Source: Escherichia coli
GTDB taxonomy: Bacteria > Pseudomonadota > Gammaproteobacteria > Enterobacterales > Enterobacteriaceae
Reading direction: 5' to 3' (one strand)
DNA length: 37,672 nucleotides
NCBI RefSeq assembly: GCF_051903065.1
Contig: NZ_CP178442.1
In this document: one piece after another, positions 7,534-8,358 of the stretch
Layout of the letters: each line of letters starts with the position of its first letter
How positions within the stretch are numbered: the stretch's first letter is position 1
Made by a program: the position numbers and the translations under genes
The notes under the pieces: model-generated
The model's database searches: none
What the model was told of the DNA's origin: nothing
Seen by the model: only the letters and a program-made list of their open reading frames with translations

Positions 7534-8358
7534 TTGAGTCACTTACCCGCCAAAATTTTCCAGATTTCACGTAGCGACGCCTGGAATTTAACCATCTCTC
7601 CCGATGCAGCCCGTAATATGCGGGATCTGGCGGCACAGATTGGCGCAGGAATGCCAAAATATCTGATAGCACCGGAAGTCTCACTGCTTCTCTCCTACAT
7701 CGATGATCTGAACATCCGTATGTACTTTGAGACGCTCTGGAATACCGGAGCACGACTGAACGAAGCTCTGGCGCTGAAACCTGCCGATTTTATACTGACT
7801 CCGACACGGCAGTACCCGCAACCCGTGGTGATCCTGAAAACACTCAAGCAACGTCTAAAAGAAGCAGAAAGAAGACCAGGACGCCCGACCACCAGGCATC
7901 CACCATTACATCCTGATCCGCGATACAGAAAACCACCGGAGCCTGCTGTAAGGCTGGTTCCTGTTCTGGATGCCGGATACGCATTGCGTATGCGGGAATA
8001 CCTAGCGACCTGGAAAAAGCGGATCAAACATCAGCCTGTGTGGGACATAACATCGAGACAGACACCGCTGAACTGGATAAACACCGCAGTGGCACGGGCA
8101 GAGCGTGACGGCGTAACATTTTCGGTTCCGGTCACGCCTCACACGTTTCGCCACAGTTACGCCATGCACCTGACAATGAGTGGCGTTCCTCCGCGCGTTC
8201 TGCAATCCCTGCTGGGACACCGTTATGCAAGAAGCACCGAGATTTACACCCGCGTTTTTTCGCTGGACGTCCTGACAGGAAGTGGCCTGTCCTTTACCTG
8301 CGATCCACGGCGAGCAAAACAGCTTCTCGGATACCCTGAACGCATTAATGATGAGTAA
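7534..8358 (+). CDS. tyrosine site-specific recombinase (short, catalytic-domain-only, FimB/XerD-like); candidate plasmid resolvase or invertase
   Basis: Conserved catalytic residues in context: ARLNEALAL (Arg), HTFRHSYAMHL (His-x-x-Arg), LLGH, TEIYTRV (Tyr). TTG start at 7534 with ggaga RBS; an ATG at 7618 is an alternative start. Confidence 0.75.
   Translation: MSHLPAKIFQISRSDAWNLTISPDAARNMRDLAAQIGAGMPKYLIAPEVSLLLSYIDDLNIRMYFETLWNTGARLNEALALKPADFILTPTRQYPQPVVILKTLKQRLKEAERRPGRPTTRHPPLHPDPRYRKPPEPAVRLVPVLDAGYALRMREYLATWKKRIKHQPVWDITSRQTPLNWINTAVARAERDGVTFSVPVTPHTFRHSYAMHLTMSGVPPRVLQSLLGHRYARSTEIYTRVFSLDVLTGSGLSFTCDPRRAKQLLGYPERINDE

Follow-up and report, generated by a model that had tools for sequence, protein, structure and literature searches.

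The gene at positions 7534 to 8358 (+ strand) of the window, the whole 37,672-bp stretch of DNA analysed here, encodes a short tyrosine recombinase that, judged by homology, is a member of the ResD (F-plasmid D-protein) family; on this evidence the enzyme itself is ordinary and of a known kind. In our opinion, it is probable that the gene is an intact representative of this family whose part in the IncX4 stability module is to resolve multimers, that it acts on a 26-bp target, that the odd loop in its catalytic domain is functional, and that its site was displaced in this particular plasmid. We found no experimental work on the IncX4 recombinase, on multimer resolution or otherwise, in the searchable literature, and we infer all mechanistic steps discussed below from homology and comparative genomics.

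The recombinase gene and its family

The window is the complete IncX4 plasmid pSD11 (NZ_KM212169.1; E. coli, swine, China), reverse-complemented and rotated with respect to the database record. The recombinase gene starts with TTG, has a GGAG ribosome-binding site 9 bases 5' of this start, and encodes 274 amino acids; the RefSeq annotation is identical (WP_000018882.1, "tyrosine-type recombinase/integrase"). We consider the start at 7534 sound, because homologs at 66-77% identity maintain both a TTG or GTG start and an N-terminal SHLP motif. Undisrupted IncX4 plasmids encode exactly the same protein. Its gene is part of the plasmid backbone, flanked on one side by a resistance insertion and on the other by the gene of a ParA/MipZ-like partition ATPase (8463 to 9122, +), which lies directly 3', belongs to the same stability module and keeps this order in most homolog loci. 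The IncX4 module runs from the recombinase to parA and then to the gene of a small DNA-binding protein. The palindrome TTGTGTATTAATACACA occurs at 8422-8439, 9122-9139 and 14902-14919, three copies where 0.04 would be expected by chance; two of them flank parA, and the small protein whose gene follows parA likely uses the palindrome as an operator or a centromere site.

The original prediction of a short tyrosine recombinase with R..HxxR..Y residues and almost no core-binding domain agrees with what we found. In the AlphaFold2 model, which was built on 74 homologs (pLDDT 88.6, pTM 0.82), residues 1-22 have low pLDDT and no predicted secondary structure, the N-terminal part consists of a single helix (23-36), the catalytic domain begins at about residue 46, and a core-binding domain is absent. 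The catalytic residues of tyrosine recombinases are all present (R74, K105, H203, R206, H229 and Y238). Across the alignment of 74 family members H207 is kept in every one, R140, R206, H229 and Y238 in 73 each, K105 in 71 and R74 in 70, while at position 203 there are 49 members with H and 17 with K. The Pfam match (PF00589) is confined to residues 174-241, that is, to the C-terminal third.

The closest characterised relative is the ResD/D protein of plasmid F (NC_002483, 46866-47672), which matches residues 40-265 at 46% identity (BLASTP, E 1e-60). ResD together with its site rfsF forms the multimer-resolution system of F (PMC4398462, PMC5587640). In a translated search (tblastn) of 72,556 plasmids, homologs sharing 43-47% identity turned up in more than 5,000 records, which include IncF, IncL and IncR plasmids as well as others. 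Among these homologs one is annotated "resD: resolvase", and the names resD or resolvase also appear in IncR, IncL and other records. Homologs from pSLT and pOXA-48 have been named rsdB and resD (PMC5065971; bioRxiv 10.1101/2025.01.23.634512). The ResD-like family is a compact one, with 216 members at E 1e-10 and 23 at E 1e-30 in a set of 1.84 billion representative proteins.

Membership of better known families was judged against the cut-offs of curated NCBIfam models, and none of the three families considered fits. The protein reaches 61.5 bits with the XerD model (cut-off 329.6) and 50.5 with that of XerC (cut-off 335), and the N-terminal domain of these proteins is absent; the integron integrase models TIGR02249 and NF011946 reach 54.5 bits against 265 and 39 bits against 435. 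For FimB/FimE the figures are 25.1 bits against 221 (NF007370) and 18.5 against 222 (NF007371), with matching residues at 192-240 only. The description "FimB/FimE-like" is therefore right about the architecture, since FimB and FimE are also short tyrosine recombinases without a core-binding domain, and wrong about kinship, given these scores and the 46% identity to ResD.

The likeness to ResD of F goes beyond sequence identity. That protein is also short (268 aa, compared with 274 aa here), it has a hairpin loop of the form TLKQR...GR...R-x-VPL, there is a putative simple inverted-repeat site 5' of its operon, and its gene is linked to plasmid maintenance genes, although these are ccdAB in F and parA here. 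RsdB/Rsd of the Salmonella virulence plasmids pSLT/pSDL2, as described in the literature, is likewise a ResD-like putative plasmid resolvase, but its gene lies in an operon led by ccdAB. Its crs site reportedly consists of 17-bp direct repeats. The system as a whole is called rfsF-RsdB (PMC9412624, PMC5065971).

The Pro/Arg-rich loop

The low-complexity stretch in the catalytic domain, to which the original prediction drew attention, is indeed present: it is the peptide KEAERRPGRPTTRHPPLHPDPRYRKPPEPA, residues 109-138 (nt 7858-7947). The model places it in an enlarged hairpin loop between beta2 (residues 98-102) and beta3 (139-143); residues 103-138 (7840 to 7947, +) stand in place of the usual tight turn with the catalytic lysine, and they are modelled with a pLDDT of 82-85. 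The loop contains TLK105QR, the AT-hook-like RRPGRP and the clade-specific HPDPRYRKPPEP.

A basic loop at this position is found family-wide, starting with TLKQR and ending with R-x-VPL, and the near-invariant K105 stands at its beginning, as the catalytic lysine does in Cre. Between K105 and R140 the length varies from 7 to 35 residues among the 74 members (median 17), the IncX4 clade having the longest loops, 14 residues longer than that of F ResD. The added HPDPRYRKPPEP is confined to this close clade, within which it is almost invariant. A GRP-like core (GRP, GRK or GRT) is present in the loop of 51 of the 74 members, and GRP after a basic residue in 47; examples resembling an AT-hook are RGRGRPKK, KRGRPKKK and, in the present protein, RRPGRPTTR. 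F ResD has GRM instead of GRP.

Could the stretch be the product of a frameshift? This explanation, raised as a way in which the original prediction might fail, is ruled out by a codon-level comparison with 3-4 homologs (about 66-71% identity), which shows that the loop is conserved as protein: there are 12-17 synonymous and 11-13 non-synonymous differences and no indels, and both alternative frames across the loop hold stops. From these sequence comparisons we conclude that purifying selection acts on the loop. Its role is probably to contact DNA, in the minor groove or by wrapping around it, in place of the missing core-binding domain; an AT-hook role of its GRP motif is conjecture.

A candidate target site

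The original prediction stated that the target site of the recombinase is not obvious. This was a fair description of pSD11, where the site has been displaced by an insertion; normally a candidate is found about 290 bp 5' of the gene. In undisrupted IncX4 plasmids this is the 26-bp element yTGGACAnA-N8-TCTGTCCAG, 289 bp 5' of the recombinase start, and the proximal copy reads CTGGACATACAGCATTTTCTGTCCAG. The element resembles lox or rfsF, and on the basis of the sequence comparisons that follow it is likely the target of the recombinase. We found no description of a site of the IncX4 recombinase in the searchable literature (queries: IncX resolvase, rfsF, ResD cassettes and the site sequence).

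To test the association of site and gene we chose 17 loci by their recombinase protein, at about 66-98% identity, and allowed up to 3 mismatches to the site. They represent IncX4, IncFII-like, MOBF and VirB-type backbones from E. coli, Salmonella, Cronobacter, Citrobacter, Erwinia and metagenomes. All 44 copies of the site in these loci lie upstream of the gene and in one orientation, with none downstream, against a total of 0.55 expected by chance from shuffled sequence. The proximal copy is found at -288 to -403 in 17 of 17 loci. When seven of the upstream regions are aligned, the 26-bp core appears as an invariant island in otherwise divergent DNA.

The same alignment contains a second invariant block, CCTGGACAAAA...ATCGGAAAAAATGTCCA, in which the same half-sites stand 19 bp apart (TGGACA-N19-TGTCCA), just 5' of a conserved -10-like box, GTCATAAT. 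The D protein of F is both a repressor and a resolvase. It is plausible that the block is an operator.

A comparable element exists in F itself. F and an IncR plasmid share the inverted repeat AGATCCGAAA-N8-TTnCGGATCT 5' of the resD operon; in F it starts at nt 45922, the very point where the RepFIA region described as "beginning with rfsF" starts (PMC4398462). This putative rfsF is a 10-8-10 inverted repeat, the same in design as the IncX4 candidate site and different in sequence: its arms are AGATCCG rather than TGGACA, and it measures 28 bp rather than 26 bp. Cre/loxP of the phage-plasmid P1 offers a further parallel, as it combines inverted arms around an asymmetric centre, needs no accessory site and has a role in dimer resolution.

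Most of the 26-bp sites have a TTTAATTCC-like motif about 10 bp to the left of the core (for example at 4770-4790 of locus L005 and at 2973-2984 of the window). It is present on the left flank only, and the full site is therefore asymmetric. The motif could mark the end of a cassette, or it could serve as an accessory contact, perhaps one made by the AT-hook-like loop.

A scan of our whole collection for the site gave 30 loci. About 19 of them belong to unrelated taxa, against about 17 expected by chance by our own estimate, and look like chance or unrelated palindromes. About 11 are Enterobacterales loci, of which a single one has the recombinase within the stretch examined; the scan is therefore not a test of the association between site and recombinase. 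Clusters of sites occur on some Enterobacterales contigs with no recombinase in the stretch examined, and such sites could be bound by another protein or could represent orphan cassettes. On Buttiauxella, Citrobacter and Rahnella contigs (L023 3121-3794; L015, L017, L041) an ORF for a 159-aa GNAT acetyltransferase has one co-oriented site just 5' and two just 3'. These sites include the TTAAT left-flank motif, and a ResD-like gene is absent from the stretch examined; the locus may be an orphan cassette.

Proposed mechanism

Two protomers would bind the inverted TGGACA/TGTCCA arms of the 26-bp site, which would consist of arms of 9-10 bp around a centre of 6-8 bp. Y238 would cleave the DNA of the site, helped by R74, K105, H203, R206 and H229, and the enlarged beta2-beta3 hairpin would probably provide the minor-groove or wrap-around contacts that replace those of a core-binding domain. 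The two sites of a plasmid dimer would then be exchanged via a Holliday junction, resulting in monomers. That recombination takes place at the 26-bp site we infer from comparative genomics only. The earlier suggestion that such enzymes are often invertases or dedicated resolvases can be narrowed in one direction: resolvase is the best reading in view of the homology to ResD, and invertase is disfavoured by candidate sites that are all direct.

Site arrays and cassettes

Where F has one site in the 10 kb examined, the IncX4 clade often has arrays of 1-6 sites that bracket ORF-bearing segments. Three IncX4 plasmids form a series: p50579417 has one site and no cassette, pSAM7 has two sites and one cassette, and CP023905 has four sites and three cassettes. 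Where BLAST alignments of these plasmids with one another break off, they do so within the 26-bp sites, and in p50579417 the single site is a composite: its left half and flank are those of site 1, its right half and flank those of site 4. The flanks in this series share little beyond the 26 bp, and the breakpoints are nonetheless exact. In some arrays about 100-160 bp of the left flank is also repeated; therefore homologous recombination could explain some of the cassette polymorphisms.

The arrays are not restricted to one backbone. The IncF plasmid pECOS88 (NC_011747; IncFIB, ColV-type) has a segment 99.8% identical to the array of CP023905 (L043 5001-6658, L044 964-1306). The identity ends at the last base of site 4, after which pECOS88 continues with other genes or cassettes and a fifth site, then with the operator and promoter block and a recombinase gene cut off after 14 codons. 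A cassette encoding a DpnII/MboI-like nuclease is common to IncX4 and an Erwinia plasmid at 75% identity, and in both the homology starts inside a site. Another array cassette encodes AbiD.

Active direct repeats should delete the DNA between them, and hence the persistence of the arrays depends on some block to cross-reaction. The sites of one array have different centres (for example CAGGTCAT, CAGGTAAT, CAGGGAAT and CAGCATTT), and we propose that such differences could prevent neighbouring sites from recombining and yet let the identical sites of a dimer react.

The arrangement invites comparison with two known kinds of modular DNA. As in integrons, a recombinase gene stands beside a cassette array with n+1 sites for n cassettes, and IntI4 is among the best structural matches. 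In contrast to integrons, a common cassette promoter is absent, the ORFs run in both directions, and a folded single-strand attC is not apparent, because the 26-bp sites are short and symmetric as double strands. The pdif modules of Acinetobacter plasmids, bounded by sites of XerC/XerD, are discrete gene modules with short tyrosine-recombinase sites that are shared between plasmids, and in this they are similar to the cassettes described here. However, they depend on the XerCD of the host and on sites of alternating orientation, while the present system has a plasmid-encoded recombinase and co-oriented sites without similarity to dif.

It may be, and here we are nearly evenly divided, leaning slightly towards doubt, that ResD-clade recombinases and co-oriented sites with differing centres make up a plasmid-borne platform for cassette exchange, with a logic like that of integrons and simple double-stranded, lox-like sites. 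Such a platform would carry defence and accessory genes from one Enterobacterales plasmid to another, IncX4 and IncF included, and perhaps into chromosomes. The enlarged loop, the candidate site and, above all, the co-oriented arrays that bracket cassettes appear to be undescribed in the searchable literature.

State of the system in pSD11

Positions 5-3603 and 7489-9047 of the window match CP023905 at 100% and 99.9%. Between them, a block at 3604 to 7489 replaces 1,438 bp of native DNA and consists of IS26, cfr, IS26 and the 3' end of a Tn3-family tnpA. The two IS26 copies (3604-4423 and 5969-6788) are direct and bracket cfr (4843-5892, - strand); the 38-bp inverted repeat of the Tn3-family element lies at 7452-7489 and abuts the -10 box. 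The lost DNA held sites 2-4 of the array, two cassettes, the operator-like element and the promoter -35. What is left of the native leader is 44 bp (7490 to 7533, +), which still include the GGAG ribosome-binding site and a portion of the -10 box, and we found no promoter-like site upstream of 7534-8358 in the window.

The sole surviving copy of the candidate site, TTAGACATA-caggtcat-TCTGTTCAG, lies at 2995 to 3020 (+), 4.5 kb upstream of the recombinase gene. It was the outermost and most degenerate copy of the native array and differs from the consensus at two positions, one in each GGACA core. The plasmid has no further good match to the 26-bp site. The remnant of array cassette 1 follows at 3021 to 3603 (-) and encodes the C-terminal part of a protein with a DpnII/MboI-like nuclease domain, truncated by IS26. 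RefSeq annotates this IS26-truncated part of the restriction-nuclease-domain protein as "malate dehydrogenase" at 3032-3676 (-); the full-length copy of the protein matches PF18742 at 2e-49 and also the PADLOC model of an Argonaute-associated REase.

Because the insertion removed the proximal sites, the operator-like element and most of the promoter, the resolution system of pSD11 is probably weakened or even crippled, with any expression of the recombinase probably coming from read-through.

The 95-nt inverted repeat

The plasmid does contain a long inverted-repeat pair, as had been pointed out: it spans 10920-11014 and 19398-19492, 95 nt in each arm, 99% complementary. The arms flank the replication region, and one of them abuts ddp1/taxC. 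IncX plasmids have long inverted repeats, alpha and beta, which contain oriT-alpha and oriT-beta (PMC3332091), and the 95-nt repeat is this IncX alpha/beta repeat carrying oriT. The idea that it serves as the substrate of the recombinase does not survive this identification. Moreover, a query placed across one junction matches 637 plasmids, 442 of which cover it without a break, and we found no link between the repeat and the recombinase.

Among sampled partial matches there are plasmids of 1.4-4.2 kb from E. coli, Klebsiella and E. albertii that have the repeat alone (43-98 bp at 86-99% identity). A repeat on such very small plasmids is what would be expected of a borrowed oriT, and this suggests that they are mobilised by IncX4 plasmids.

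Alternative explanations

It is possible, though we doubt it, that the recombinase is mainly an integrase and excisionase of cassettes, with the arrays as an integron-like platform for gene capture and dimer resolution as a secondary activity. The rule of n cassettes and n+1 sites, the breakpoints inside sites, the cassettes shared by unrelated backbones with homology that starts or ends inside a site, and the defence-like genes for a DpnII/MboI-like nuclease and AbiD would all be natural under such a scenario. Against it, the closest characterised relative is a resolvase, the gene is located in a partition and stability module, the smallest IncX4 backbones have one site and zero cassettes, no circular cassette was observed, and cassette ORFs in both directions mean that a common promoter logic is absent. 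The TGGACA...TGTCCA elements might instead be operators of a transcription factor, either the recombinase acting as a repressor only or some other protein, with the polymorphisms arising by homologous recombination between repeated flanks. We think this improbable. The N19 block beside the promoter, the sites in chromosomal loci without a recombinase and the flank of about 100-160 bp repeated in some arrays are consistent with it, but it does not account for exact breakpoints between IncX4 plasmids whose flanks share little beyond 26 bp, for a site geometry that is that of rfsF and loxP, or for strict co-orientation and an upstream position with respect to the recombinase gene.

The two remaining alternatives deserve, in our opinion, hardly any credence. 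A DNA invertase of the FimB/FimE kind, flipping a segment between inverted repeats such as the 95-nt pair, would share the short architecture without a core-binding domain and would have a long inverted repeat at hand. But FimB and FimE use inverted repeats for promoter flipping, whereas the 44 candidate sites are all direct repeats with none inverted; the family models reach about one tenth of their cut-offs, the window holds a single strong site, and the 95-nt pair is an oriT repeat found in one junction in most matching plasmids and alone on small ones. Equally far-fetched is a decaying or frameshifted pseudogene in which the Pro/Arg-rich stretch is out-of-frame translation. Its low-complexity composition, the limited Pfam coverage and the loss of the native promoter in pSD11 may give this impression, but homologs at 66-77% identity have the same residues despite synonymous codon changes and show no indels, the alternative frames hold stops, the model is confident through the loop, and the protein does not differ from that of undisrupted plasmids. 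As far as the coding sequence is concerned, the pseudogene is refuted; a loss of expression in pSD11 is possible. We retain our hypothesis of an intact ResD-family resolvase.

Implications of the hypothesis

IncX4 plasmids have a major role as carriers of mcr-1, cfr and ESBL genes. The placement of their recombinase in the ResD family, together with a concrete 26-bp site, turns a "tyrosine recombinase, function unknown" into a directly testable system, and the enlarged basic hairpin offers a handle on how tyrosine recombinases without a core-binding domain hold DNA. If the arrays are real exchange points, they would explain the strong variability 5' of the recombinase gene among IncX4 plasmids, and enterobacterial plasmids would have a second route, beside integrons and IS26, for swapping defence and accessory genes.
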